In this document: piece after piece, positions 5,112-18,697 of the stretch | Layout: the number at the start of each line of letters is the position of its first letter | Numbering within the stretch: the stretch's first letter is position 1 | Sequence record: MN850636.1 | Reading direction: 5' to 3' (one strand) | DNA length: 64,000 nucleotides | DNA from: Escherichia phage dune | The notes under the pieces: model-generated | Seen by the model: only the letters and a program-made list of their open reading frames with translations | Databases searched by the model: none | What the model was told of the DNA's origin: nothing | Position numbers and translations under genes: made by a program

Positions 5112-5838
5112 CCCCTTTTAACCAGCACTTCAGGTTATTAGCATCATAATTCAGTTTCGGGTATGAGGTTACATGGAACTGCTCACCATCATAATAGACA
5201 ATATCTGCAATCCATAGTCCATTCTCTTTACAGAAGTCTTTATCTGCTTTAGAGGTAATTGGATTAACTTCTACAAAACCATCTACACCCAAATCCTTTA
5301 AGCTACCTACAATACCTTTGCAGATAACGCATGTCTCAGATACTACCACAAAAAGTTCTTGGCTTTCAAGCTCTACAATGTATTCACCAAGCTGTACTTT
5401 AGGGAGATTTGATTGCTTCATAATCTTCCCATCGGCTGCACGAACAATCGCATACCACTCTTTACCATCAACTACTGACATTCTGATAATACACTCTTGA
5501 CCAGTACGCTTTTCAATGTCTGCAAGACGTTTTAAAGCTTCTTCATAGTTATCTGTGTACTTCAGGTCATTATTATGGCAAACAGCTTTCATAGCACCGT
5601 TATGGTCATGTTGTGACAGATAAATCAAGCCGTCAAGAACATATTGTAAATCTGCCTGAGCATCCAGTGTCTCAATGGGGTCTTTCTCTTCAATTGCTTT
5701 TACAAGCTCTTTTGCTTCTTCAAGCATACACAGAGATTGAGATTTTAAAGATTCCCAATACTCATCACTGTAAGGTTGCTTTTGAGTGTTTCCACAACGA
5801 AGGTTCCAGTTTTTTACTGATTCTCTTGAGTTAAACAT
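5083..5838 (-). CDS. Hypothetical protein (251 aa)
   Basis: ORF track. Confidence 0.5.
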   Translation of the reverse strand: MFNSRESVKNWNLRCGNTQKQPYSDEYWESLKSQSLCMLEEAKELVKAIEEKDPIETLDAQADLQYVLDGLIYLSQHDHNGAMKAVCHNNDLKYTDNYEEALKRLADIEKRTGQECIIRMSVVDGKEWYAIVRAADGKIMKQSNLPKVQLGEYIVELESQELFVVVSETCVICKGIVGSLKDLGVDGFVEVNPITSKADKDFCKENGLWIADIVYYDGEQFHVTSYPKLNYDANNLKCWLKGVGYNGFTEH

Positions 5839-6077
5839 TCGGACTCCTTAAAATATTTGTTAACCTTTAGCTCTCGTGTTTCAATATACTCTAGATGCTC
5901 ACGTAGCTCTTGACGTTTAAGCATTAGGTGCTGCATTTGAGATTCAACAGCTTCAACTTCTTTAATTATTGACTCTCTAGCATTTGCAAGAACGCGCTCA
6001 AGTTCTTCAATCTTGCTGTCAACTTTTGCTACATGACTCACAGCTTTACTTTTGTTAAACATTTTATTCTCTCTCAA
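5814..6077 (-). CDS. Hypothetical coiled-coil protein (87 aa)
   Basis: ORF track; charged heptad-like sequence. Confidence 0.45.
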   Translation of the reverse strand: MRENKMFNKSKAVSHVAKVDSKIEELERVLANARESIIKEVEAVESQMQHLMLKRQELREHLEYIETRELKVNKYFKESECLTQENQ

Positions 6078-6083
6078 TAGTTA

Positions 6084-6584
6084 TCAAGCACAATTTGCTT
6101 TCATGACCTTATGGATTCTTTTTTCAGCATCTTCATAAGTTTCTTTAGTAATAAACTTAATTGCTGCAATATTGGCATTGTAGAAGAGTCTGAGCTTCGA
6201 GTCAATCCTTTTTGTCATTACATCGAACTTATGTTGAAGGTTTGCTTCACCATAAACTAGACCACCTTTTGTGTAGTAGGTTTGGATAATGTAAAAATCA
6301 AAAGATTCCTTTCCAAAGCTCTCAATATCTTTTTTAATATACTCAGAAGAAGTCTCGTAAGTCATCCAATCACTTTCCTTAGTAACTACCTTCTTCCGAG
6401 TCTTCCCAGCAACTTTTCTTTTGGTCACACTGTTAAGCTGTTTCTTACCCAAATAGTACTGTCCAGTCTTTTTGCAGTACACTAGGTAGACAAAACCAAA
6501 GTGCTTTGCTGGGTCAACTTCACCACATAGTGAAACCCAATGTCCATATTCAGGACAATTGCCAAAACCTTTTATTTTTCTCAT
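6084..6584 (-). CDS. Putative GIY-YIG-like homing endonuclease (weak)
   Basis: Motif FVYLVYCKKTGQYYLGKK resembles GIY-(10)-YIG; basic tail; located in a cluster with an HNH endonuclease. Confidence 0.35.
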   Translation of the reverse strand: MRKIKGFGNCPEYGHWVSLCGEVDPAKHFGFVYLVYCKKTGQYYLGKKQLNSVTKRKVAGKTRKKVVTKESDWMTYETSSEYIKKDIESFGKESFDFYIIQTYYTKGGLVYGEANLQHKFDVMTKRIDSKLRLFYNANIAAIKFITKETYEDAEKRIHKVMKANCA

Positions 6585-7081
6585 TCATAAGCTTCTCCGT
6601 GATTTGTAAACTCTTTATGGAGTTCTTCTCTTTTCTTTTTGACAACTAATTCAGCCTCAGCGATAGAGTCAAATAAACCTAGATGATAGCAAACTTTATT
6701 ATGCTTGACTTGTGCAGCCCATCTACCTCTTTGCTTATGGTAATATACACCCTTCACACCAGATTTATTATCTCTTCTTTTGGCTGCATTACAGTTATTA
6801 TCTGACCTGCTACACTCTCTCAAATTGTCGAACCAGTTGTCGTGCCTGATACCATTCTTATGGTCAACAAATTTTGGTAGGTATCCTTTCATATACAAGA
6901 ATGCCAGTCTGTGTGCTGCATATCTTTTCCCGAAGAGTTTTATGTAGATATAACCACTATGATGTTTAAGACCCGCTACTGAGCCAGCTTTGGCCTTACC
7001 TTTTCTATTAACTAACCAAGTAAAGACCCCTGTTTCGGGGTCATAGTGCAGGTATTCTTTAAGAGTTTGTTGGGTTAACAT
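6581..7081 (-). CDS. HNH homing endonuclease with C-terminal AP2-like DNA-binding domain
   Basis: HYDPETGVFTW N-motif, AHRLAFLY...VDHKNG...DN..NLRE (HNH_3-like), SGVKGVYYHKQRGRWAAQV (AP2-like); ORF track start 7105, ATG at 7081 more likely. Confidence 0.8.
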   Translation of the reverse strand: MLTQQTLKEYLHYDPETGVFTWLVNRKGKAKAGSVAGLKHHSGYIYIKLFGKRYAAHRLAFLYMKGYLPKFVDHKNGIRHDNWFDNLRECSRSDNNCNAAKRRDNKSGVKGVYYHKQRGRWAAQVKHNKVCYHLGLFDSIAEAELVVKKKREELHKEFTNHGEAYE

Positions 7082-8105
7082 TTGGTGTCCATCCATACTT
7101 ATCAAAAGTGAAATCGTCTTTCTTATTTCTTTCCTGATAAGCTAAGAAAAAGTGTTGCTGCATTAACTCTAAAGGTGTTCTGGTAATTGTTTGACCATCC
7201 CACGAGACATAAGTGTATGACTCTTTCTTAGCATAAAGCTCATAAATTGCATCAAGACACTCTTTGTAAGTGGTTTTACCTTCAAGGGCTTTCATTATAG
7301 TAACCTTACCAACACCCTTTAAACCGAAATAATTATCCGCATTATCACCAGCCACGGCTTGATAGCAAAGAAATTTAAAACCTACCCCAACTGTCTTCTT
7401 AGCTTTGGGTGTCGATTTTATTGGGCAATCCCAAATTTCACCAACGTTGTTATCAGCAATGAAAATCAAAGGTGACTTTTCATAGGTCATATCAATGCAG
7501 TAAGTCCCTTCAGCTTGGCGAAGGTCTTTATCAATACTCATCAAGGCAGCCTTTTTACCCATCTTTTCAGCTTTAGCAATAACGATAGAGTCAGCTTCGA
7601 ATCCATCAAGAATTAGCTTGAACTCTGGCCTTGACAGAAGATACTCGCGACAAGCAACTAAGTGTGTTGGTGTGACAGCATCTTTACGGTTACCTTGATA
7701 TTGGTGCTCAAGACCTTTAATGTCTTTATGTTTATGCACACCTTTCTCTGTTAAATAACCTACCCAAGTTCTTTCTTTACCAACAACCTTAAGCCATTCC
7801 TGAAGCACCTGTTGAGTAGCCATGATAGCTTCTTTTTCACTCTTAGCTTCTTTCCAAGTCTGTCTTTCCCATTCATCTTCATCAAATGTCAGGCCAAGCT
7901 CTTCCACAAGGATTCTCTGGTCTGCTAACCATCTTGCAGCATCTTTCGCATTATCAAACGAATCAGATTCTTCTGCTGTGAGTTTATTGACATATTTATA
8001 TTTTGCTTTCTCAACTACACAAGCACCTTTATAGGCAATACTGTCAGAGTCAATAAAAACATGTGTAACTGAATCGGGAAGTTTTGTTAATGTGTACTTC
8101 TCCAT
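7059..8105 (-). CDS. 5'-3' exonuclease / flap endonuclease (T7 gp6-like, RNase H-like)
   Basis: FEN-family acidic motifs: ILDGFEADSIV, SIDKDLRQ, AGDNADNYFGLKGVGK matching the gp6 pattern from memory. Confidence 0.7.
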   Translation of the reverse strand: MEKYTLTKLPDSVTHVFIDSDSIAYKGACVVEKAKYKYVNKLTAEESDSFDNAKDAARWLADQRILVEELGLTFDEDEWERQTWKEAKSEKEAIMATQQVLQEWLKVVGKERTWVGYLTEKGVHKHKDIKGLEHQYQGNRKDAVTPTHLVACREYLLSRPEFKLILDGFEADSIVIAKAEKMGKKAALMSIDKDLRQAEGTYCIDMTYEKSPLIFIADNNVGEIWDCPIKSTPKAKKTVGVGFKFLCYQAVAGDNADNYFGLKGVGKVTIMKALEGKTTYKECLDAIYELYAKKESYTYVSWDGQTITRTPLELMQQHFFLAYQERNKKDDFTFDKYGWTPNVNPTNS

Positions 8106-8121
8106 TATGGCTCTCCATATG

Positions 8122-8148
8122 AAAAAGCCCCATACTAAGTACAGGGCT
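8122..8148 (-). terminator. Putative rho-independent terminator downstream of SSB gene
   Basis: AGCCC/GGGCT stem with U-run on minus strand. Confidence 0.4.
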
Positions 8149-8167
8149 TTAAAGTAACTTTTAGAGA

Positions 8168-9025
8168 TTAGTCTTCTGTGTCGAAGTCTTCATCTTCTTC
8201 GTCATCTGGGTCTGGCAAATCTTCATCATCACCATCATCAGAAGTATTCGAAGATTTATGGTCTGTTGCGTCTTCTTCAGTGATTTCACCGTTATCTTCA
8301 ACACCATCAAGACCAAGCATAGCCAGTTCATCTTCATCCAGTTCAGGTTCACCATTAGCACCGTTACCACCAGTGTAAGGTACAAGGGTATCAATGATAA
8401 ACTGTTCCTGAATAGGTTTTGTCAGAACATTGTTCTCAAAAGTGTAGAAGTGAGTAGAAAGAATCACACTACCAAAAGAACCGTTACCAACTGCGATATC
8501 TGGATGAATTACATCATAGTTCTTGTCATCTTCATGTTTATCAGATGCTTGAGCTTTGATTTTCTTCATCGGCTGCTTAACAGCTACACGCTTACCATTT
8601 ACTTCTTCAATCAGCATTACAGGGAATGACTGTTTAGCTGTCCATACAGCACCATCTTTATAAGCTGCTGCACGACTTACTTTCAAGATGTAGTAAGTGT
8701 CTGCTTCAAAAGGTGGTTTACAACCAAACTTCTCTTCGAAGTCATCTGCATCAACTGCTTCAGTAGTAACTTTGTCCCAGCCTTCTGGGTTTTTCTTAGA
8801 CTTAGTAAACTCTTTAAACAGCTTGTTACCATCTTCTGCCAGAATTGACACACTGTAGTTACAGTCTTTGCCTGGGAATTTCTTATCAATAGACTTACCT
8901 TTCCCCGGACGTGGTGAAGTATTCAGGTAATAAAACCAGACATCTTTCAGCAGGTAACGCAGAGTTTGACGTTCAGTACCGTTGTATTTCTCTACCGGAG
9001 CTTTCATTTTAACAACTTTAGACAT
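8168..9025 (-). CDS. Putative ssDNA-binding protein with highly acidic C-terminal tail
   Basis: 285 aa; C-terminal 40 aa almost entirely D/E ending DEDFDTED; position between exonuclease and primase-helicase as in T7-like replication modules. Confidence 0.45.
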   Translation of the reverse strand: MSKVVKMKAPVEKYNGTERQTLRYLLKDVWFYYLNTSPRPGKGKSIDKKFPGKDCNYSVSILAEDGNKLFKEFTKSKKNPEGWDKVTTEAVDADDFEEKFGCKPPFEADTYYILKVSRAAAYKDGAVWTAKQSFPVMLIEEVNGKRVAVKQPMKKIKAQASDKHEDDKNYDVIHPDIAVGNGSFGSVILSTHFYTFENNVLTKPIQEQFIIDTLVPYTGGNGANGEPELDEDELAMLGLDGVEDNGEITEEDATDHKSSNTSDDGDDEDLPDPDDEEDEDFDTED

Positions 9026-9098
9026 TATTTAAACCTCTATCTCAATTTATGAAGAGTACCAATTCTAATTTGTTGATACTCTATTGTCAAATACTAAT

Positions 9099-9247
9099 TA
9101 CTGGAAGTTGTGCTTATCTTTAGAAGCTGCTTTACGTGCAGTTTTTCCAGTTCTTACACGTTTCTCTTCATAGTATTTTGCTGGTTTTCCAGCAGTGGCT
9201 TTTAAGGAATCCCCAAAAACTTTTTCAAATGCTTTAGAGTGTTTCAT
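9099..9247 (-). CDS. Small basic protein (49 aa), not in ORF track
   Basis: Hand translation MKHSKAFEKVFGDSLKATAGKPAKYYEEKRVRTGKTARKAASKDKHNFQ; GGAG RBS 6 nt upstream; ATGA stop-start overlap with upstream ORF. Confidence 0.5.
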
Positions 9248-9537
9248 GATATTCTCCGATATACTTGATATTCAAACACATTTTCTTTAATTATAAACAG
9301 CCAGCTAATATTATGCTGAGGCAGCGCAATGATGACTGTAATCATGCTCTGGTGGAAATCTTGTTTTATCTCAACTTCCCCATCGCATTTCATGTGGAGC
9401 ATTCTATAGAACCTATCAATCTTTGTCAAACACTCTTCCTGAAATTTATTTAAACTTTTTTCTTCAAAGAAGGGTGTGAACCCCTCTCTTTTATAACTAT
9501 CACTCAGTTTCAAACGGGCAGTCATCTGCATCCTCAC
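9244..9537 (-). CDS. Hypothetical protein (97 aa)
   Basis: ORF track; stop overlaps start of the 49-aa ORF (translational coupling). Confidence 0.45.
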   Translation of the reverse strand: MRMQMTARLKLSDSYKREGFTPFFEEKSLNKFQEECLTKIDRFYRMLHMKCDGEVEIKQDFHQSMITVIIALPQHNISWLFIIKENVFEYQVYRRIS

Positions 9538-11491
9538 TTAATACAGGTGGAATCGTTGAGCTTTGACGTTGTTCTTCAGTATAGACTTCACCAGTCTCAC
9601 GGTCAAACACTTCATCCTCATAATGAGGCAAAGAGTCATCATAATGGTCTTCAGCTTCACCAATACCAAACTGTTGACGAATATTTTCTGCTGCGCCATC
9701 AATGTCAACACCACATCCAGAAGCTTTAATAAGACGTCCTGTATCTGGATTATACCAAGTATGGCCAGCAATACCTGTTGACTTACCATGACGACGACAC
9801 TTAGTTAACTTGATTTTTGTCAAGTTTTTCTTAACTGGGTCTGGGTCAACCTTGTTACGCATTAACAGAATGTTATTCATAGAAATCTGAAAATACGCAC
9901 CAGAACCTTTGATATCCTCTTCAGAGATATCTCCACCTTCAGAGTTAGCTTTCTGACCACCTGCACTCTTACGAACGTGACATACGTTTACCTGCGCATA
10001 CTGGTAGCGTTTGCAACGACGCAATAGCTCAGACAAAACTTCTTCTTCATCCGTATCAGAACGTGACAGGGCTAACGTGATAGGGTCAAGAATGATAATC
10101 TTACAGTCTAAACTGTTAACAAGATAGTCAACAAACTCTAGCAGGTTATCTTGGTCAATTGCCCCTTGATGGTCAACGATATGGATACGACGGCCTTTAG
10201 ATAGTTCTGCGTGTGCTCCTTTTAATTCATCCCAATCCCGTTCATCATAAGGAATCTCAGAAATCTGCTTGCTCAGGTGGATTGCACAGAGCATCTCCAT
10301 CAACTCTTCATAGGTATCTTCTACAGGAATTACACCGATATTATAATCAGTTTCTTTCCAAGCTGAGTAAATCATCTCACGAGTGTAAGCTGACTTACCT
10401 ACTGAAGATGGTGCTGCAATAGTTGTAATCTCACCTAGACCATAACCACCATAAGTCAGCCTGTTCAAATCTCCGAAAGATTCTGGGAAAGGAATCAATG
10501 GAATCTGACCACGATTCTTCATTGCCTCAAAACCATCTGCAAAGTTCTTGATACCAGCAGGACAGTAACGAGGTGCATTGTAGATACGCTGCTTAAATCC
10601 TTCCAGAACTGTATCTTTCTCTTTATAGAACTTTGTCCACCACTCGTTAAGGTCTTTTACGCCTTCTGGATACTGGAATAAGCGAACCTTCTCAATAGGT
10701 AGGATACCAGCAGCCTCTTTGGTAGCTTTAGCACCTGCTTCATCGTTATCAAAGCACAAGTAAATCTCATCAAATGATGTGATGTACTGATAGTTGTCTT
10801 TGATAGACTTAATGTTTGCACCTGATGGAACAGATACGTGACAGTAATTCTTACGACGAGACTTGTCCTTAATCGCAAGAGAAGTCATATAGATTGCTGT
10901 CGCACATTCCATCTCACCTTCCCAGATGAATAGACGGTTACCACCTTCTGGAGCAATCCATGAACCGAACATTGCCAGTTCACCTTTAATGTCTCCAACA
11001 CCACCAGAAAAGTCTTTTAGCTTACCACGTAGGTGCTCTTTTGGATGGTCTTCTGGGTAACGGTGACGAACACGGTAACCAACATGTTCTAGCTTACCAT
11101 CTTCATTACGTTTGTAAGTTGGATAGAAATGTGCGTCAATTTCACCATCACTGTCAATGTCAACCTTGATACCTAAGCGTTCAAGGACTTTTGCAGGAAT
11201 CTTCCTGTCTTTCAAGTCCATTGCTTCTAGGTTTTCTTTTACATCGTCTAAATCCATTCCACGGAAAGTACGGTTTTTATTGTCTGAACCAGTAGAATAA
11301 GTGCTCACGATTTGTCCTTTATCAAAATCCCACTCTGGGAAACCTTTGTTACAACTAAAGCAAGTCATCGAATAAGAATCATCGTCATGATGATAGATTG
11401 AACCAGCATCTGATGAACCACAACGTGGACATGCGCAATGACCAACAAACTGACCAGCCTCTTTCAATTTACGACCTTTAGACATTAGCAC
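9500..11491 (-). CDS. Bifunctional DNA primase-helicase (T7 gp4-like)
   Basis: N-terminal Zn-ribbon CACPRCG...CFSCN, central TOPRIM-like region, C-terminal DnaB-like Walker A AAPSSVGKSAYT. Confidence 0.88.
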   Translation of the reverse strand: MLMSKGRKLKEAGQFVGHCACPRCGSSDAGSIYHHDDDSYSMTCFSCNKGFPEWDFDKGQIVSTYSTGSDNKNRTFRGMDLDDVKENLEAMDLKDRKIPAKVLERLGIKVDIDSDGEIDAHFYPTYKRNEDGKLEHVGYRVRHRYPEDHPKEHLRGKLKDFSGGVGDIKGELAMFGSWIAPEGGNRLFIWEGEMECATAIYMTSLAIKDKSRRKNYCHVSVPSGANIKSIKDNYQYITSFDEIYLCFDNDEAGAKATKEAAGILPIEKVRLFQYPEGVKDLNEWWTKFYKEKDTVLEGFKQRIYNAPRYCPAGIKNFADGFEAMKNRGQIPLIPFPESFGDLNRLTYGGYGLGEITTIAAPSSVGKSAYTREMIYSAWKETDYNIGVIPVEDTYEELMEMLCAIHLSKQISEIPYDERDWDELKGAHAELSKGRRIHIVDHQGAIDQDNLLEFVDYLVNSLDCKIIILDPITLALSRSDTDEEEVLSELLRRCKRYQYAQVNVCHVRKSAGGQKANSEGGDISEEDIKGSGAYFQISMNNILLMRNKVDPDPVKKNLTKIKLTKCRRHGKSTGIAGHTWYNPDTGRLIKASGCGVDIDGAAENIRQQFGIGEAEDHYDDSLPHYEDEVFDRETGEVYTEEQRQSSTIPPVLSEDADDCPFETE

Positions 11492-11678
11492 CTCTTCGTT
11501 GTAGTTCTGCCTTCAATCCATTTTCAATCTTGTCCAGTTCATGAATTTCATCTGCAATCTCTTTCCTTCGTGATTCAACTCTCTTAAGACGTTCAATCAT
11601 TACCTCATTGGAAAGAGATGAGAGTTCCACTAAACGGTGGTCAATAACTTTAAAATTGTCTTTTACTCTCATCTTCAT
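11478..11678 (-). CDS. Hypothetical protein (66 aa)
   Basis: ORF track. Confidence 0.4.
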   Translation of the reverse strand: MKMRVKDNFKVIDHRLVELSSLSNEVMIERLKRVESRRKEIADEIHELDKIENGLKAELQRRGANV

Positions 11679-11686
11679 TCTCTCTT

Positions 11687-12430
11687 TTAAACTTTAATGA
11701 TGGCTCTTAGCTTGTTCTCAAGGTCTGTAAGAGTACCATTATTATGAATAATGTCACGCTCATATTTGGTGGATAGCCCATTTTCTGAAACGTGTGATGA
11801 AACTTTGTCCACATTGTCTCTTTTTACTTCAATAGTCTGGTGTGCAAATCTACTCAGCCATTCAGCTTCAGAGTCAAATCTTAAATCACTGATTAAAACA
11901 AAACCATATTGATTTCTAAGTGAGCACATTTCATGGAATCTAACCATTCTTTTTTCAAGGTCTTTAGACCAGAACTTGTCGCCCATTACTTTACGGACAA
12001 CTTCAGTACCCCAAATCTGTTGAATTTGTCTTGATGAGAGTTTATACTTTTTGCTAAACCCCAGACGTGTCAATAGAGTCGGTTTAGCAACCTTCTTAAG
12101 CTCCATGATTAATCGTCCGGTTAATTCTGACATAAGCTTGAAGTCCATATGGTAACGTTCATCTCTGAAGGTGAACTCCATAGCTTCCGTAACTTTAAAC
12201 ATCAGTTCATGATATGATAAGTCAAAAACCTGTGGAGTCTCTTTAGTTTCACCGTACAGGTCATTCCAAGTCAAGTCAAATATCTTTGATGCAGATAGTT
12301 TAAGGTTGTCTGCAAAGGCCATTACTTCAACATTGTAGCCATACTCATCCTCTAAGATGTTCTTCACAATAGAACATGAGGTGTCTTTTCCAGAACGTGC
12401 CTTTCCAGTAAATGCGATAATATTACTCAT
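11687..12430 (-). CDS. Deoxynucleoside monophosphate kinase (T4 gp1-like)
   Basis: P-loop FTGKARSGKDT near N-terminus matching the dNMP kinase GxxRSGKDT pattern; 247 aa. Confidence 0.7.
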   Translation of the reverse strand: MSNIIAFTGKARSGKDTSCSIVKNILEDEYGYNVEVMAFADNLKLSASKIFDLTWNDLYGETKETPQVFDLSYHELMFKVTEAMEFTFRDERYHMDFKLMSELTGRLIMELKKVAKPTLLTRLGFSKKYKLSSRQIQQIWGTEVVRKVMGDKFWSKDLEKRMVRFHEMCSLRNQYGFVLISDLRFDSEAEWLSRFAHQTIEVKRDNVDKVSSHVSENGLSTKYERDIIHNNGTLTDLENKLRAIIKV

Positions 12431-12491
12431 TTTATCTCCATTAATTACTAAAAAGCCCCCAACTAAGGAGGCTTGTAAGATTTATAAAGAC

Positions 12492-13292
12492 TTAGTGTAG
12501 TTGCTCAGCAGACTCTTTTTCAGCCATAGCTGAGAGTTGCTTCACAAAATCATCACCGAAGTTAATGCGTAGTTTCTCTTCAATGATGGAAGCACCAATG
12601 TTCACCAAAACATCATTGATTGCTTGCATACTGACGCCACCAGTCATCTCTTCAATAAACTCAATACTCACACCCATCATCTGTGAAAGTTGGATTAGTG
12701 CAACGATATTCATCATCGTAGAGATAGCTGGAATCATCAGTGCAACTTTCACCTGAAGTGGTTCTATATCAGCTACAGAGTCATTTTCAACAGCTTCTTC
12801 CAAAGAATCTTTGGTTTGCTGGATAATTTCTTGGATTCGTGGGTTTAATTCTTCTACGCCCCAATCAAGTTTTTCATATCGTGAAAGTTTCTCTTCCATG
12901 CGCTTCTCAAGAACAGCCATAACAGCACTCGTTGATGAGATAAGCGTATCAATAATGAAATCAGTGTCCTTAGTCAGCAACAGCTCCTTATCTTCGTCTG
13001 ACATCCTGATATAGTCATTTCTCTGCATCTCATAAAAAATGAACTCTGCAAGAGCATCAACACCAACCGCAATAGATGCCAGAGCAAGTGTTTTGTCGCA
13101 AAGCATCATGTTAACCTGTTCTGCAAAAGCATCGTTATCAGACTTGTCTTTAGGCAGATTGTAGCTTGCAGGCATAAACTGTTCTGTATAGTTGTTACCA
13201 CGAAGAATCATAGCCATGCTTTCTACGGCATTGATTAAAAATGCTTCGTCAATACCTTTTTCTTCAAGCATCTTTTCTACATCGATATTCAT
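12492..13292 (-). CDS. Hypothetical protein (266 aa)
   Basis: ORF track. Confidence 0.5.
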   Translation of the reverse strand: MNIDVEKMLEEKGIDEAFLINAVESMAMILRGNNYTEQFMPASYNLPKDKSDNDAFAEQVNMMLCDKTLALASIAVGVDALAEFIFYEMQRNDYIRMSDEDKELLLTKDTDFIIDTLISSTSAVMAVLEKRMEEKLSRYEKLDWGVEELNPRIQEIIQQTKDSLEEAVENDSVADIEPLQVKVALMIPAISTMMNIVALIQLSQMMGVSIEFIEEMTGGVSMQAINDVLVNIGASIIEEKLRINFGDDFVKQLSAMAEKESAEQLH

Positions 13293-13293
13293 A

Positions 13294-13716
13294 TTATTTC
13301 TCTCTCAGTTGGTTAAGTTTCTTTCTAGAACATTTTAAGTTTTCAGATGAAGAAAAGTCAAGTGTCTTTTCAGAACGTGGATAATAGTGCCTATCCCAAG
13401 AAGTTTCAACATCGTTAATCAGTGACGCTAGATTACACAGGTCTGTACCACTTTGCAACCTCTTTTTAAGAGAATCTAGTAAAGCAACTGTGTCTTTAGC
13501 TTTACGTCTCGCTGTAGCAACATCTTTCATATGCTCAAATACAGAGCATTTTAAGTCATCTTCATAGTTTTCAGACAACTCTATTTCATGTTGTATATCA
13601 ACCATTCTCCTGTGATGGTGAGCATATTCCCGTTGAGCAGCAATGTCAAGTTCTTCCAACTTCTGCAAAGCTCTAACAAAGTCAGCTATGTCTGGGTGAA
13701 CAAACATTTTCTGCAT
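13294..13716 (-). CDS. Hypothetical protein (140 aa)
   Basis: ORF track. Confidence 0.5.
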   Translation of the reverse strand: MQKMFVHPDIADFVRALQKLEELDIAAQREYAHHHRRMVDIQHEIELSENYEDDLKCSVFEHMKDVATARRKAKDTVALLDSLKKRLQSGTDLCNLASLINDVETSWDRHYYPRSEKTLDFSSSENLKCSRKKLNQLREK

Positions 13717-13883
13717 GTAAGCCTCTTTTAAGTAACTATTAAGTTTTAATCTTTTATCTTAACGTATTCTATACGTTATACTTTAAAGCTTTTTAAAAGC
13801 TATTAAATAATCTTTTAAGAGTTTTAAAGTATCTGTATAGTTAAACTGTTAAGTAACCTTTTAAGTAAAAACCCACTTCGCAA

Positions 13884-13912
13884 AGATTAACACCTTGTCA
13901 AGTGTATTGTCA
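13884..13912 (+). promoter_or_regulatory. Conserved motif ACACCTTGTCAAGTgtaTTGTCAAC upstream of DNA polymerase operon (second copy at 56143)
   Basis: Near-identical 24-nt motif at the heads of two plus-strand gene blocks in divergent intergenic regions; TATAAT at 13923. Confidence 0.4.
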
Positions 13913-13973
13913 ACTTGCTTTTTATAATTTTTTGCAGTAATGTATGAGGTTAATGATTTTAGAGGGAGTAAAA

Positions 13974-16673
13974 ATGGAAAACGTAGATTTTAAGAACTTA
14001 CATTTAGTTGGTGATACAGAAACTGATGGTTTACTCCTTGAGTTCACTAAAGTTCACGTAATGGCTTTTGCAGACTATAAATCTGACGATGAAGAGCCAC
14101 CTGTATGGGTCTTCACAGATGAGCCTATCCTCGGTCACAAGTACACTAAGTACATTAAGGGTGGTTTACGTGAAGGTGTTGAGTTTGCGTTAAAGGCAAA
14201 ACGACTTTGTATCCATAATGGTCTCGGTTATGACTGGTGGGTTTTCAATCACATTGCACCGGATTTATGGAACTTTGATAATCCAAAATGTAAGCCGTGG
14301 AGTAATTTCTTTCAGGACTCTCTTATCCAGTCTCGTGTTCAGTGGATGGATAGACCAACTCCAAAGGGTTATAAAGGTGCTCATGGTTTGGCTGCATGGG
14401 GTGCTCGTGTTGGTGTTCGTAAGCCAGAGATTGAGCATTGGGGTGTGTGGAATGCAGAAATCTTCACTCGTGTTGTAGAAGATATTCGTATTAACGCCAA
14501 AACTAAACGGGCACTTGATAATGAGTATCTCAAGCTTAAGAAGTGTGGCATAGACACTTATGAAACCTACATGCGAGCTAAAGAAACATCTTTCTGGATG
14601 AGTCAACAAGCTATCAATGGTTGGAAAGCTGATAAAGAGCTTATGGAGTTCCATGTAAAGGAACTTGACAAGTTGACTAATGAGCTTGCTTCAGAGGTTG
14701 AACCACACCTTCCTCCAACTATTAAGACCAAAGGTAAAGTCACTGGAGAAGAGTTTGCAAAAGCTTGGAATGAGTATGTTGAAACATTTGGTCATGCAGA
14801 TGGACTGAAGAGAATTACCAAGTACCCTAAAACAAAGTATCGTCAGCAGGTACGTAACGGTGAGATGCAGACATACGAAATCAAGCCATTTGGTAAGCCA
14901 ACTACAAAGATTTTTAACATTGAAAAGAGAAATTGCTATACACCAACCAACTCTGTAACTGGTGAGGAGTACAAGGAAGGCTTTGTAGCAATGAAGGATG
15001 CTCGTGCAATTTGCAATGAGTTGAACGCAAAGATTGGTAAGAAATGCAAAGACTGGAAGCCAGTAAAAACAGTCAAAACTGTGAAGTACTATAACAGCCA
15101 CGTTGTTAACCACTTTGAGCTTGAGTCGAGTCGCTACACAGGTTTGATTGATGCACCATATACACCAATTGAGTTTGAAGTTTCCCGTATGACTCAGGTA
15201 GCAGTTGTTAAAGACTACTTGAAATCAGTTGGTTGGATTCCAGATGACTGGAACTACAAGAAAGACTCAGATGGTCGCCCTGTCAAAGTTTGTCGTTTCA
15301 AAGACAATAAAAAGATGATTACAAAACATCCTAAGTGGCAGGAAATGGTTGAGCGATGTGGTTTGAGCTATGTTGAACATGAAGGTGTACAGTACATCGA
15401 GCATAACTGGTCTGTGAAGAAATACACAGATTTGCTTGAACCTTGCTTAATCCGTACTTCACCAAAACTTACTGAATCATCTTATGATACGATTGAAGGT
15501 GAGCTTGGACAGAAGATTGCTAAGTACTATACTTTGATGCACCGACGCAGAACTATTGAGAACTCAAAGGATGATGAAAAAGGTTGGTTGAACCAGATTC
15601 GTCCTGATGGTCGCCTTAGTGCTGGTGCAATGGTATTTGGCACTTCAACTGGACGTATGACACAATATGGTATTGTAAACGTACCGTCTGGTGCTGCTGT
15701 CTATGGGGAACCAATGAGGGCAGTGTGGATTTGTGAAGAAGGTACTAATGTTGTCTCTGTAGACATGAACTCAGCCCAGCTAGTTCTCCTTTGTAACTTT
15801 ATGGGTGACAAAGACTTCACCAAAGCGGTAACGCAAGGTAAAGAAGAGATTGAGTTTATTCGTCAAGAAGATGGACGCTATTACTGCAAACATTTTGATG
15901 AGTACCTAAACCCAGAGATTGATAAGTACCTTCGCTATGACTCTGAGAATGACCTGTACGTTGTCTATTCAGGGACTGATGCACATACACTGAATAGTAT
16001 TTACTTTAGCTTGAATGATGAGCAGGATATCTTGACTTGTCGAGCTACTCAGGATGAGAATCTTCTTCATGAGATTAGCAAAGGTCGTAAGAAAGCTAAA
16101 AATGGTATCTATGCACTACTGTTCGGTGCAGGTGATGAAAAGTTTGCTAAAACTATTAAGGCAGCCACTACTCAGGAAGGTGCATTAACTAAACAGACTT
16201 ACTTTGTGCGTTTGCCAAAGATTAAGAAGCTGCTAGATGACTTGGAAGCTGACTACAAAGCAACTAAAAAGGCACTTGAAGAGGTGTTTGGTAAGACTGC
16301 TGCAATCTCTAAAGGGGGTTTTGTAAAGGTTGCTGGAGCTTGGTTGTGGTGTAAATCTCCACATAAGTTGTTGAATTATTTGCTCATGGGTTCGGAAAGT
16401 CAGATTCAGAACGAGGCAATTAACCTTGCTTGCCGTCGTATGATTGACGAAGGTTTGATGAAGTTGAACGGTCGCAAACCAGCTATAGGTGCTCGTTTAT
16501 TGTGCTCCTATCACGACGAGACGAGTTGGGAATGCCCAGAAAGTATGACGGCAGAGGTGAAGGCTGTCACTGATTGGTATTACGGGCAAGCCTCTAAGAA
16601 CTTAGGACTAAAGAGTGAAACACTGGTAACTGGTACTGGTAAGGTTGGTAAATCGTGGTTGGAAGTGCATTAA
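13974..16673 (+). CDS. DNA polymerase, family A (T7-like) with 3'-5' exonuclease domain
   Basis: Exo I motif VGDTETDGL; motif A VSVDMNSAQL; motif B KNGIYALLFGAG; motif C YHDE; ATG at 13974 with AGGGAG RBS (track start 13944 is upstream in-frame). Confidence 0.92.
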   Translation: MENVDFKNLHLVGDTETDGLLLEFTKVHVMAFADYKSDDEEPPVWVFTDEPILGHKYTKYIKGGLREGVEFALKAKRLCIHNGLGYDWWVFNHIAPDLWNFDNPKCKPWSNFFQDSLIQSRVQWMDRPTPKGYKGAHGLAAWGARVGVRKPEIEHWGVWNAEIFTRVVEDIRINAKTKRALDNEYLKLKKCGIDTYETYMRAKETSFWMSQQAINGWKADKELMEFHVKELDKLTNELASEVEPHLPPTIKTKGKVTGEEFAKAWNEYVETFGHADGLKRITKYPKTKYRQQVRNGEMQTYEIKPFGKPTTKIFNIEKRNCYTPTNSVTGEEYKEGFVAMKDARAICNELNAKIGKKCKDWKPVKTVKTVKYYNSHVVNHFELESSRYTGLIDAPYTPIEFEVSRMTQVAVVKDYLKSVGWIPDDWNYKKDSDGRPVKVCRFKDNKKMITKHPKWQEMVERCGLSYVEHEGVQYIEHNWSVKKYTDLLEPCLIRTSPKLTESSYDTIEGELGQKIAKYYTLMHRRRTIENSKDDEKGWLNQIRPDGRLSAGAMVFGTSTGRMTQYGIVNVPSGAAVYGEPMRAVWICEEGTNVVSVDMNSAQLVLLCNFMGDKDFTKAVTQGKEEIEFIRQEDGRYYCKHFDEYLNPEIDKYLRYDSENDLYVVYSGTDAHTLNSIYFSLNDEQDILTCRATQDENLLHEISKGRKKAKNGIYALLFGAGDEKFAKTIKAATTQEGALTKQTYFVRLPKIKKLLDDLEADYKATKKALEEVFGKTAAISKGGFVKVAGAWLWCKSPHKLLNYLLMGSESQIQNEAINLACRRMIDEGLMKLNGRKPAIGARLLCSYHDETSWECPESMTAEVKAVTDWYYGQASKNLGLKSETLVTGTGKVGKSWLEVH

Positions 16674-16683
16674 TGGTGACAAA

Positions 16684-17211
16684 ATGATTACACAAGAACG
16701 TTTAAAGGAGCTACTACACTATGACCCCGAAACAGGGGTCTTTACTTGGCTTCGTAGAGAGGGTGACTCAAGGGCTGTTAAAGTCTTTAATAGTAAGTAC
16801 GCAGGACAGGTAGCGGGGAGCATCCAGATTGACTCAACTGGTCATAAGCAGATTACTATCTATTTTGACAAGAAAGCACATAAAGCACATAGACTCGCAT
16901 GGCTGTACGTGTATGGTAGGCTACCGAAAGGTGTTATTGACCATATTAATGGGGACTCCCTTGATAACAGGGTTGTAAACTTAAGAGAAGCAGATGACTG
17001 CCAAAGTGCTTGGAATAAAAGCAAACTATCCACCAATAAATCAGGCTATAAGGGTGTAAGCCTGAAGAAGAAGTCTGGTAGGTGGGTTGCGCAAATAAGC
17101 TATAAAGGTAAAAAGATGTCATTAGGCTACTATGACACCCCTGAAGAAGCCCACAAAGCTTACTGTGAAGCTGCTATTAAACTCCACGGAGAGTTTGCAA
17201 AACTAAGTTGA
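16684..17211 (+). CDS. HNH homing endonuclease with AP2-like domain (paralog of 6581-7081)
   Basis: LKELLHYDPETGVFTWL, AHRLAWLY...IDHINGD..DNR..NLRE, SGYKGVS...GRWVAQI; starts 8 nt after polymerase stop. Confidence 0.82.
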   Translation: MITQERLKELLHYDPETGVFTWLRREGDSRAVKVFNSKYAGQVAGSIQIDSTGHKQITIYFDKKAHKAHRLAWLYVYGRLPKGVIDHINGDSLDNRVVNLREADDCQSAWNKSKLSTNKSGYKGVSLKKKSGRWVAQISYKGKKMSLGYYDTPEEAHKAYCEAAIKLHGEFAKLS

Positions 17212-17262
17212 CAAGGTACTCAGGGAAGAGTACCTTATACTGTATCTTGTATAGGAGGGCTT

Positions 17263-17472
17263 ATGAGCCACCGTGGAAGAACCCATGCAGCAATGATGAA
17301 AGGTGCTTCAAAGGAAACTATCAAGAACCGCAAGCAGAAGTTGTTTGAGAGAATGAACAGGTTAATTGACAATTCATCTCTTTCAGGTTCTGAGAAGGTT
17401 TTCTTGAAAGGTAATCTGAAAAGCATTGCACAAGAACTTATTGACATTGAGTATTGGAGACATCAAAAATGA
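17263..17472 (+). CDS. Hypothetical protein (69 aa)
   Basis: ORF track. Confidence 0.4.
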   Translation: MSHRGRTHAAMMKGASKETIKNRKQKLFERMNRLIDNSSLSGSEKVFLKGNLKSIAQELIDIEYWRHQK

Positions 17473-17681
17473 CACTTGCAGACGTTATCCAACAACTTCA
17501 TGATAACTGCTATACTCCAGAGTTGATTCAGGAGATGCTTATTGTAGTGATGCCTAGTAAGTTCGTAAAAGGTTTTAATAATGACTCTTTAAGGTCTGCG
17601 CATATCCTTATTGTTGATGGTAAGATTGCAAGGGACCGTACTGGAGTCCTTAAGGGCGAACGTATTAATATTAACCTCTGA
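17469..17681 (+). CDS. Hypothetical protein (~70 aa)
   Basis: ORF track; ATGA overlap with previous stop. Confidence 0.4.
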   Translation: MTLADVIQQLHDNCYTPELIQEMLIVVMPSKFVKGFNNDSLRSAHILIVDGKIARDRTGVLKGERININL

Positions 17682-17868
17682 ATATTGGAGATACCGAAAA
17701 TGAAACGCAAAGTTAAGTTTTTTAATTTATATGGAAGAGTTGGTAAAGGTTTTGACTGGCAACTGTTACGCTCAAATGTTAAAAGCAATGAATTAGCACC
17801 ACTTATCATTCATTATCGACGTACATACAGAGAAGTAGAGCATCGTGAACAGTAAACAGGGGTGTATT

Positions 17869-18105
17869 ATGTGGAAATCAGTAATTGCGCTTGGTGTTAT
17901 TTTTCTATCTGGCTGCAAACCTTCTTATGAAGATAAAAATGCTTCTTACAGCCTCCCACCAGAGATGCAAGATTGCAGAGTATACAAGTTACATGGTGAT
18001 GCTATAAGCAGAGATATTGTTGTTGTCAGATGTCCAAACTCCCAAACAACAACATCTTATAGCTATGGCAAAAATGGTCAATCACACACTACGGTTATTG
18101 AGTGA
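17869..18105 (+). CDS. Putative small lipoprotein
   Basis: N-terminus MWKSVIALGVIFLSGC: signal peptide with lipobox L-S-G-C; RBS AGGGGTG upstream. Confidence 0.5.
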   Translation: MWKSVIALGVIFLSGCKPSYEDKNASYSLPPEMQDCRVYKLHGDAISRDIVVVRCPNSQTTTSYSYGKNGQSHTTVIE

Positions 18106-18115
18106 GGGTTTCACG

Positions 18116-18322
18116 ATGGAAGTCCTAGTAAACTATATCTATTGTTATGATGTTGTTCACTCTACTACAACGGTAGCTCAACGTAACCCAATCGTCCCAC
18201 GAGAAGGTGAGTTGGTTCGCATTGATGGTTGGACTTACACTGTGGAAAGCATCATTCATAAGTTTGATGTTGCTGGTGATGTTCAAGTTATTGACGTAGA
18301 AATTGGTGGTAAGAGAAAATGA
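18116..18322 (+). CDS. Hypothetical protein (68 aa)
   Basis: ORF track with internal ATG after GAGGG RBS. Confidence 0.45.
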   Translation: MEVLVNYIYCYDVVHSTTTVAQRNPIVPREGELVRIDGWTYTVESIIHKFDVAGDVQVIDVEIGGKRK

Positions 18323-18486
18323 AATCTAAGCAAACAATGGCAGATGCAATCTTCACAGTACACAGTTTCGAAAGGTTGCGCATCAAAGATGCAAAGGATA
18401 CCCCAAAATGCGTTGTACATTTTATTAAAAGGCGTAGTAACATGTCCTATATGAAATCTGACAAAGGTGAGAGTACAAATGGATAA
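18319..18486 (+). CDS. Small hypothetical protein (55 aa), not in ORF track
   Basis: Hand translation MKSKQTMADAIFTVHSFERLRIKDAKDTPKCVVHFIKRRSNMSYMKSDKGESTNG; ATGA coupling with upstream stop. Confidence 0.4.
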   Translation: MKSKQTMADAIFTVHSFERLRIKDAKDTPKCVVHFIKRRSNMSYMKSDKGESTNG

Positions 18487-18697
18487 AGATAACAAATATA
18501 ATAACGCCGTCCTTACAGAAGATGGTGAGCTTGAAACATTCATTCTTCGTGTTGATGGTAAACTATTCCGGTGTCGTTGTGGGTCAAACTGTTTTCATAA
18601 ACCAGATAAAAATGACTTAGAGCTTTACGCATGTAATGCTTGCAATACTTGGTATCACTCAGAGGTTAAAAATGACAATTCTATACAAACAAAATAA
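18479..18697 (+). CDS. Putative zinc-ribbon protein
   Basis: CRCGSNC ... CNACNTW two Cys pairs; RBS GGTGAGAG. Confidence 0.45.
   Translation: MDKDNKYNNAVLTEDGELETFILRVDGKLFRCRCGSNCFHKPDKNDLELYACNACNTWYHSEVKNDNSIQTK

Follow-up and report, generated by a model that had tools for sequence, protein, structure and literature searches.

Putative Free-Standing HNH–AP2 Homing Endonuclease Genes at Two Sites beside Replication Genes of a Felix O1-Like Phage

Results

Two HNH–AP2 Genes Adjoin Replication Genes

The stretch of 64,000 nucleotides (nt) from Escherichia phage dune analyzed here (record MN850636.1; the whole stretch is referred to as the window) contains two genes encoding HNH endonucleases with AP2 domains, each beside a replication gene. 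HNH–AP2 gene 1 (HNH1; 6581..7081, minus strand; 166 amino acids from the ATG at 7081) is located between a gene for a GIY-YIG protein and the 5'-3' exonuclease gene, and HNH–AP2 gene 2 (HNH2; 16684..17211, plus strand; 175 amino acids) follows the stop codon of the DNA polymerase gene (pol). An initial annotation, made from the sequence alone, had proposed that both are free-standing homing endonuclease genes (HEGs) beside replication genes, and domain content, presence/absence polymorphism, and sharp insertion boundaries support this proposal for both. It had suggested profile searches and a comparison with relatives as checks; HNH_3, AP2, and GIY-YIG domains were all found by Pfam, and the comparison revealed presence/absence and allele polymorphism at both HNH–AP2 loci.

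The HNH_3 and AP2 domains map to approximately 6794-6922 and 6653-6763 in HNH1 (minus strand) and to approximately 16882-16992 and 17041-17190 in HNH2 (plus strand). HNH_3 is detected at 1e-12 (48.0 bits) in HNH1 and 1e-14 (54.1 bits) in HNH2, with a Pfam cut-off of 24.8 bits; the corresponding values for AP2 are 4e-8 (33.8 bits, borderline) and 5e-14 (52.7 bits), with a cut-off of 33.3 bits. HNH1 also matches PHROG 99 (2.6e-76), and NCBIfam returned no match for HNH1, HNH2, or the GIY-YIG protein. The two proteins are 42% identical (BLASTP, 1e-37) and have in common, as the initial annotation had recognized, the C-terminal AP2 domain and an N-terminal motif, LKE(Y/L)LHYDPETGVFTWL, with LKEYLHYDPETGVFTWL and LKELLHYDPETGVFTWL in the two proteins.

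A profile of eight alleles matches the nuclease core of I-HmuI (1U3E, 2.6e-8), and plant AP2/ERF structures are matched at 1.9e-7 with a single sequence and at 1.5e-11 with the eight-allele profile. Residues D86, H87, N95, N99, L100, R101, and N111, which form the pattern DH...N...NLR, are invariant across the eight alleles of both sites and align with the VVDHKDGNKDNNLSTNLR stretch of I-HmuI.

The open reading frame (ORF) of HNH1 (6581..7105, minus strand) offers in-frame starts at 7105 (TTG), 7096 (ATG), and 7081 (ATG), the last of which is homologous to the M(I/L)TQ start of other alleles; the ORF of HNH2 (16645..17211, plus strand) has its ATG at 16684. Counted from the ATG at 7081, HNH1 overlaps the exonuclease gene (stop codon 7059-7061) by 23 nt, an overlap that had been noted initially, and its TGA overlaps the ATG of the GIY-YIG gene as ATGA. 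The pol TAA occupies 16671-16673, so that the gap to the HNH2 ATG is 10 nt and not the 8 nt first reported.

At the DNA level, HNH1 is 100% identical to a "putative HNH endonuclease" gene of phage fjerdesal, and HNH2 is 98.6% identical to a "putative homing endonuclease" gene of phage JohannRWettstein. The HNH1 orthologue in Felix O1 is ORF106 (94% DNA identity), and ORF95 of Felix O1 is a different allele at the HNH2 site. Further HNH–AP2 paralogues were observed elsewhere, namely Felix O1 ORF128 between nadV and prs (locus L002, 157-648) and a gene upstream of pol in Erwinia phage Coenus (locus L006, 20062-20538).

Both Sites Are Polymorphic and Have Sharp Boundaries

Occupancy was surveyed in 60 matching records drawn at even spacing, comprising 51 of Felixounavirus type and nine outgroups, and 44 loci were read individually. 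Site 1, the exonuclease/GIY-YIG junction, carries an insert of approximately 490-505 base pairs (bp) in 19 of the 51 Felixounavirus-type records and is empty in 32, as it is in all nine outgroups. Site 2, immediately after the pol stop codon, is occupied in 28/51, empty in 19/51, and unclear in 4/51. The reading of the 44 loci bears out the polymorphism at both sites. Among named relatives, HNH1 is absent from Shy, JohannRWettstein, mistaenkt, and Coenus, and HNH2 from fjerdesal, Shy, and wV8.

BLAST breakpoints against Shy and mistaenkt, together with junction sequences, place the site-1 insert at approximately 6590..7094 (minus strand), where about 505 bp stand in place of about 14 bp. The exonuclease gene takes its last 12 codons from this insert, so that the C-terminal tail ...KYNWEP(C/V)MNED* of empty genomes becomes ...KYGWTPNVNPTNS*; the empty exonuclease/GIY-YIG junction in Shy or mistaenkt reads ...AAATATAATTGGGAGCCGTGTATGAATGAAGATTAAAGG.... 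At site 2, the insert (16675..17207, plus strand) consists of 533 bp in place of 5 bp, between the pol TAA and a conserved TTGACAAGG...hairpin, and the HNH2 stop codon, TGA, comes from the flanking TTGACA. The empty pol end in fjerdesal or Shy reads ...TGGCTTGARGTNCACTAATTAGTATTGACAAGGTGCTC.... Junction alignment further delineated a conserved 9-bp inverted repeat, AAGGTACTC-N6-GAGTACCTT, in the right flank of site 2 (17213..17236, plus strand), which directly follows the pol stop codon in relatives that lack the HEG.

NBSal004 and BPS17W1 (loci L011 and L042), which have no HEG at site 1, possess a hybrid exonuclease tail in which ERNKKDDFTF, of the occupied type, is followed by KKYNWEPCMNED*, of the empty type. 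Such a tail is consistent with either a recombination breakpoint or a precise loss of the HEG at the insertion site.

Alleles Resemble Cassettes and Are Linked to Divergent Flanks

Three allele families were distinguished at site 1, with 56-58% amino acid identity between them and at least 90% within each, and at least five at site 2, with 40-55% identity between them. Site-1 alleles are nearer to one another than to site-2 alleles. At the DNA level, what alleles at the same site have in common is limited to the flanks and the two ends of the ORF (~75-90 nt at the 5' end and ~60-80 nt at the 3' end). The center, which encodes the linker, the HNH domain, and the AP2 β-sheet, is 43-66% identical. 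Because only the flanks and ORF ends are alike, the alleles appear to be exchangeable cassettes with constant ends. The constant 3' end encodes the AP2 helix. At site 1 this helix reads ...KKREELHKEF.NHGEAYE, and at site 2 it reads TPEEAHKAYCEAAIKLHGEFAKLS in five of six aligned alleles, the exception being that of Coenus, with changes at several positions.

In the window, site 1 holds an allele of the fjerdesal/Felix type and site 2 one of the JohannRWettstein/SUSP type, and sequence divergence in the neighboring genes follows the alleles. Over 6500-10750, which includes HNH1, the window and fjerdesal are 100% identical. In the final 670 nt of pol, identity is 82-92% to fjerdesal, where site 2 is empty, and 99.6% to JohannRWettstein, a carrier of the same HNH2 allele. 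Similarly, the exonuclease gene is 74-80% identical over its last ~500-700 nt to genomes without this HNH1 allele, compared to ~95% elsewhere.

Differences extend to the codons that adjoin site 2. In HEG-less Felixounavirus-like loci, pol ends in CAC plus a stop codon, followed by (T)TAGTRTTGACA, and in most of them CTT GAR GTN precedes the CAC. In occupied genomes the last four pol codons differ, mostly synonymously, and the window reads TCG TGG TTG GAA GTG CAT TAA. This pattern would be expected if the recognition site spanned the end of pol and the insertion point.

Rates of nonsynonymous relative to synonymous substitution (dN/dS) are 0.11-0.14 for HNH1 and 0.10-0.16 for HNH2, increasing to ~0.18-0.25 between allele families, and 0.04-0.19 for the GIY-YIG gene, where dS is saturated. 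The low ratios in all three genes indicate that they encode constrained proteins. Insert boundaries, multiple alleles, flank divergence, and dN/dS together fit active homing endonuclease genes.

A Conserved Hairpin Marks the 5' Edge of the Variable Cassette

Codons 12-22 of HNH1 and HNH2 are identical at 33 of 33 nt (CACTATGACCCCGAAACAGGGGTCTTTACTTGG), and the adjoining codons differ. This box encodes HYDPETGVFTW and is located at 7016..7048 (minus strand) in HNH1 and at 16717..16749 (plus strand) in HNH2. It contains the hairpin GACCCC-GAAACA-GGGGTC, at 7025-7042 and 16723-16740, respectively, which is positioned exactly where homology between alleles ends, that is, at the 5' edge of the variable cassette. 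Across 17 versions of the box, representing all allele families at both sites and including an Erwinia phage, the arms GACCCC/GGGGTC are constant with one GGT exception, and the 6-nt spacer and flanking codons vary.

The codons that form the arms are rare in the genome (CCC, 2.2% of Pro; GGG, 6.8% of Gly; GTC, 9.5% of Val), yielding a joint probability for the arms of ~5.6e-5 per allele. The peptide motif YDPxxGVFTW is family-wide. The arms are found in 18/18 Ounavirinae loci compared to none of 59 homologues from outside the Ounavirinae, a sample drawn by a degenerate-peptide scan that replaced an exact-pattern scan of IMG/VR, the latter being biased by construction. A mere protein motif or codon bias as the origin of the box is therefore ruled out, both by these 59 homologues and by the use of codons that are among the rarest. 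Neither Felix O1 ORF128 (YEPETGLLIW) nor the Coenus gene upstream of pol (YRKSTGEFIW) has the box or the hairpin arms. Within the window the palindrome occurs twice, in HNH1 and HNH2 only, with 0.01 copies expected, which also excludes a general genome motif; per locus, zero to two palindromes are found, as are zero to two HEGs at sites 1 and 2.

The hairpin belongs to the predicted minimum-energy fold of the RNA, and a terminator scan flagged both copies on the sense strand as terminator-like, with a GC-rich stem-loop and a U-rich tail early in the ORF. By analogy with the internal terminators of T4 mobE and segF, which it resembles, the most likely function, and the one we prefer, is that the hairpin attenuates HEG expression. 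More broadly, the palindrome may be a lineage-specific functional cis element, either an attenuator that caps HEG expression or a shared operator or recombination signal that allows divergent cassettes to be exchanged at fixed sites without change to the gene ends; we put this forward tentatively, at somewhat less than even odds. As an operator, the palindrome would perhaps be bound by an AP2 domain with a preference for G/C. A cyanobacterial AP2 domain reportedly binds poly(dG)/poly(dC).

In Salmonella phage Si3 (locus L038), the site-1 box reads GACCCGAA and has one C fewer in its run of C residues, which results in a frameshift of the HNH–AP2 gene. The copy in Si3 may be decaying, or the missing C may be a sequencing error in a homopolymer.

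The GIY-YIG Gene Is Fixed at Its Locus

The gene next to HNH1 (6084..6584, minus strand) encodes a single-domain, SegE-type GIY-YIG protein of 166 amino acids. Its match to Pfam SegE_GIY-YIG (4.7e-27, 95 bits) spans residues 22-139, with the GIY, YIG, Glu, and Asn positions conserved; fold support is weak. Neither Pfam nor NCBIfam detected a second, DNA-binding domain in the protein, and a 270-amino-acid relative has a C-terminal extension.

At least 80% of the gene is covered in 261 of 297 matching records, and the remainder contain more distant orthologues, with a diverged form in Erwinia phages. In the sample of 60 records it occupies the same locus in every one, those of distant Erwinia and Pectobacterium phages among them, and none has an empty site; it is also present in every individually read locus for which the region was recovered (43 relatives and the window). 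Since it is near-universal at the locus and has a single domain, the gene is not currently mobile. The initial annotation had listed the ORF as possibly GIY-YIG-like, and this domain assignment holds; the refuting condition it had named, universal presence at the locus with no presence/absence polymorphism, applies to this gene. The gene is best described as a single-domain nuclease gene, fixed in the subfamily and under strong purifying selection; it may once have been a HEG, or it may encode a nuclease that serves the phage.

In some GenBank annotations the ORF is labeled a GIY-YIG homing endonuclease. An active free-standing homing endonuclease similar to the Seg proteins of phage T4 would account for the 95-bit SegE_GIY-YIG match, the conserved GIY/YIG/Glu/Asn positions, and the position beside a replication gene. 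Such an enzyme is nonetheless unlikely here, given the 60/60 occupancy with no empty site, the presence of the catalytic domain only, and the low dN/dS over saturated dS. Other relatives label the ORF "NAD synthetase", the name of PHROG 447. This label has no support in Pfam, where SegE_GIY-YIG is the only match, and has probably been carried over in error from one annotation to another. Phage EC6 has what looks like a split version of the ORF ("NAD synthetase (x2)"), of which tblastn covers residues 1-85 only; either a frameshift or a sequencing error may be the reason.

Genome Context and a Polymerase Intron in Relatives

In a megablast search, the region 5000-18500 matches 273 phage records, nearly all of them Felix O1-like (Felixounavirus and allied Ounavirinae), and the window is a Felixounavirus genome. 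A T5-like phage, which composition and the order of genes had suggested, is rejected by this result. The best matches to this region are Escherichia phage fjerdesal (97% identity) and KEP1 (99% coverage). On the minus strand, the order is nrd genes, a mazG-like gene, a small ORF, the GIY-YIG ORF, the HNH ORF, the 5'-3' exonuclease, a primase/helicase, and a dNMP kinase; on the plus strand, after the divergence point, it is DNA polymerase, the HNH ORF, small ORFs, and ligase. The neighbor of the GIY-YIG gene on the side away from the exonuclease is the mazG-like/ORF 5814-6077. The exonuclease gene (7059..8105, minus strand; flap endonuclease-like; PHROG 107, 1.2e-65) forms with its 3' end the flank of site 1, and pol (13944..16673, plus strand) encodes a family A enzyme (Pfam DNA_pol_A; PHROG 17). 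Among the 84 window ORFs scanned, considering the best 25 of 67 matched families, no additional HNH_3/AP2 or SegE_GIY-YIG ORF was found.

The pol gene of the window is uninterrupted. In approximately 97 GenBank records, a group I intron (Rfam RF00028, 62.3 bits) is inserted at the position equivalent to 16115/16116 of the window, within the pol motif KNGIYA|LLFGAG; examples are located at 11416-11728 of locus L007 and 10670-11487 of locus L038. Three forms exist, namely a 313-nt and a ~270-nt form without an ORF, and a ~805-nt form with an ORF for a 160-amino-acid Endonuclease VII-type protein with an F-CphI-like motif. A site-2 HEG is present in 5/5 loci with an ORF-less intron, 1-2/5 with the Endonuclease VII-type intron, and 21/33 without an intron, in a small sample uncorrected for phylogeny. 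The association of ORF-less introns with the site-2 HEG resembles what collaborative (trans) homing, or hitch-hiking by co-conversion, might produce. HNH2 as a mobilizer of the pol intron is inapplicable to the intron-less window, and the idea is weakened by introns with their own Endonuclease VII-type ORF in many relatives. Many annotations show the intron-bearing gene as a split "DNA polymerase (x2)" and not as containing an intron.

Other variable regions were observed nearby. An additional small ORF of ~219 bp is inserted around 17262-17266, downstream of site 2, in Shy, wV8, JH2, and some other relatives, a second indel polymorphism that does not involve a HEG. Small ORFs at 17263-18500 vary in order and content, with identity down to 74-89% across 17500-18000. 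Identity also dips to 81-91% at 12750-13250, against relatives that are otherwise 95-99% identical; the dip falls within the ORF 12492-13292 (minus strand), annotated as "minor tail protein" in relatives, and suggests another recombination patch.

Discussion

The most plausible explanation for HNH1 and HNH2, to which we assign a probability of roughly 0.85, is that they are free-standing homing endonuclease genes of the I-HmuI-like HNH ("HNN") plus AP2 class, one at the exonuclease/GIY-YIG junction and the other right after the pol stop codon. Upon co-infection with a relative that lacks the gene or has another allele, the enzyme would bind through its AP2 domain, and the HNH domain would nick or cut near the cognate site, comprising either the last pol codons plus TTAGTATTGACAAGG or the ...KYNWEP.MNED*/GIY start junction. 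Repair by recombination would then copy the HEG and its flanks into the recipient. The carrier genome would be protected by the interruption of its site and by its different adjacent codons. Judging from the shared orientation and the overlap or abutment, each cassette would be co-expressed with the upstream replication gene. The hairpin, 40-57 nt into the ORF, would most likely attenuate HEG expression, as in T4 mobE and segF. Cleavage, target sites, homing, and the function of the hairpin we infer here from sequence comparisons.

Several points weigh against this model. The AP2 score of HNH1 only just exceeds the Pfam cut-off, and the U-tract past the hairpin is short, with differences from allele to allele. 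Flanks linked to the HEG allele, a signature of co-conversion, could also become mosaic through ordinary recombination when phages infect the same cell. Purifying selection across deep allele families exceeds the needs of a purely selfish, cyclically decaying element, and a benefit to the phage is possible.

An alternative view is that the HNH–AP2 proteins are mainly useful to the phage, either as weapons that degrade or exclude related competitors (marker exclusion) or as DNA-processing factors, with their patchiness reflecting accessory-gene flux. Long-term functional constraint, as indicated by dN/dS of 0.10-0.16 within alleles and ~0.18-0.25 between families, and the persistence of several alleles at one site would favor this view, and marker exclusion by T4 HEGs is documented (PMC2988022). 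That exclusion, however, is itself an outcome of homing, so a useful role leaves homing possible. Moreover, the precise insertion of cassettes between conserved genes with linked flank divergence is a signature of homing, and many healthy isolates lack one or both genes; a primarily phage-serving role is thus improbable as the main explanation. Less probable still is that the proteins are regulators of the AP2 type, with a nuclease domain that has become vestigial, and control the expression of the adjacent replication genes. AP2 is a transcription-factor domain in plants, the invariant G/C-rich palindrome in each gene could be an operator, and I-TevI represses its own synthesis (PMC2988022); yet the DH...N...NLR residues are invariant in alleles down to 34% identity and align with the active I-HmuI, and the genes are dispensable in many relatives. 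Dispensability in many isolates, together with the location in the replication module, also makes an HNH role associated with packaging unlikely.

Homing endonuclease genes of the HNH–AP2 class are already known, and genes 98.6-100% identical in DNA are already annotated in GenBank as putative HNH or homing endonucleases. Felix O1 was among the first sources of HNH–AP2 endonucleases described outside plants (Magnani et al. 2004, as cited in PMC5318435), and an HNN–AP2 class with HRLAWL/DNR/NLRE boxes was described in Xanthomonas phages (Lee et al. 2007, PMC2248197). Felixounavirus genomes have been noted to differ in their HNH genes (PMC9951933), and HEG "infestation" is acknowledged in work on the BASEL phages (PMC8594841). 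The HNH–AP2 proteins of Felix O1, RB49, and Xp10/OP1/Xop411 resemble the window genes in their two-domain architecture, their AHRLAW/DH/DNR/NLRE boxes, their free-standing nature, and the occurrence of several paralogues per genome, and no essential difference from this class was found. I-HmuI of phage SPO1 has a homologous nuclease core and is also tied to a phage family A DNA polymerase gene, but it is encoded within an intron and has a different C-terminal DNA-binding region, whereas the window genes are free-standing and encode AP2 domains.

Intronless homing, co-conversion, and the internal 5' terminators of mobE and segF have been reviewed (PMC2988022, PMC3984707). Like the window genes, these T4 HEGs are free-standing, are located by genes for nucleotide metabolism or replication, and have an early GC-rich hairpin with a U-rich tail; reliance on upstream promoters would be a further common trait. 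Constancy of the hairpin across many divergent alleles at two loci is, in contrast, undescribed for the T4 genes, and the terminator in the window is a prediction. The co-occurrence of ORF-less introns and site-2 HEGs in relatives is similar to cases of collaborative homing, including F-CphI and the psbA intron, the T3-type gene 5.3 HEG and the phiI pol intron, and mobE and I-TevIII (PMC3984707, PMC2790892). The window differs from these in having no intron, and in many relatives the intron has an Endonuclease VII-type ORF of its own.

The conserved hairpin, the cassette-like alleles, and the association between intron and HEG are modest additions to an otherwise ordinary finding. HNH–AP2 HEGs are known to contribute to mosaicism in Felix O1-like phages, a group employed in Salmonella and Escherichia coli typing and in biocontrol, and such genes should be masked in phylogenies of these phages. 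The inferred empty-site sequences provide direct substrates for enzyme tests. With two fixed sites, cassette alleles, a hairpin within the genes, and a three-state pol intron in relatives, these phages offer a compact natural system for studying competition between HEG alleles and restraint of HEG expression.

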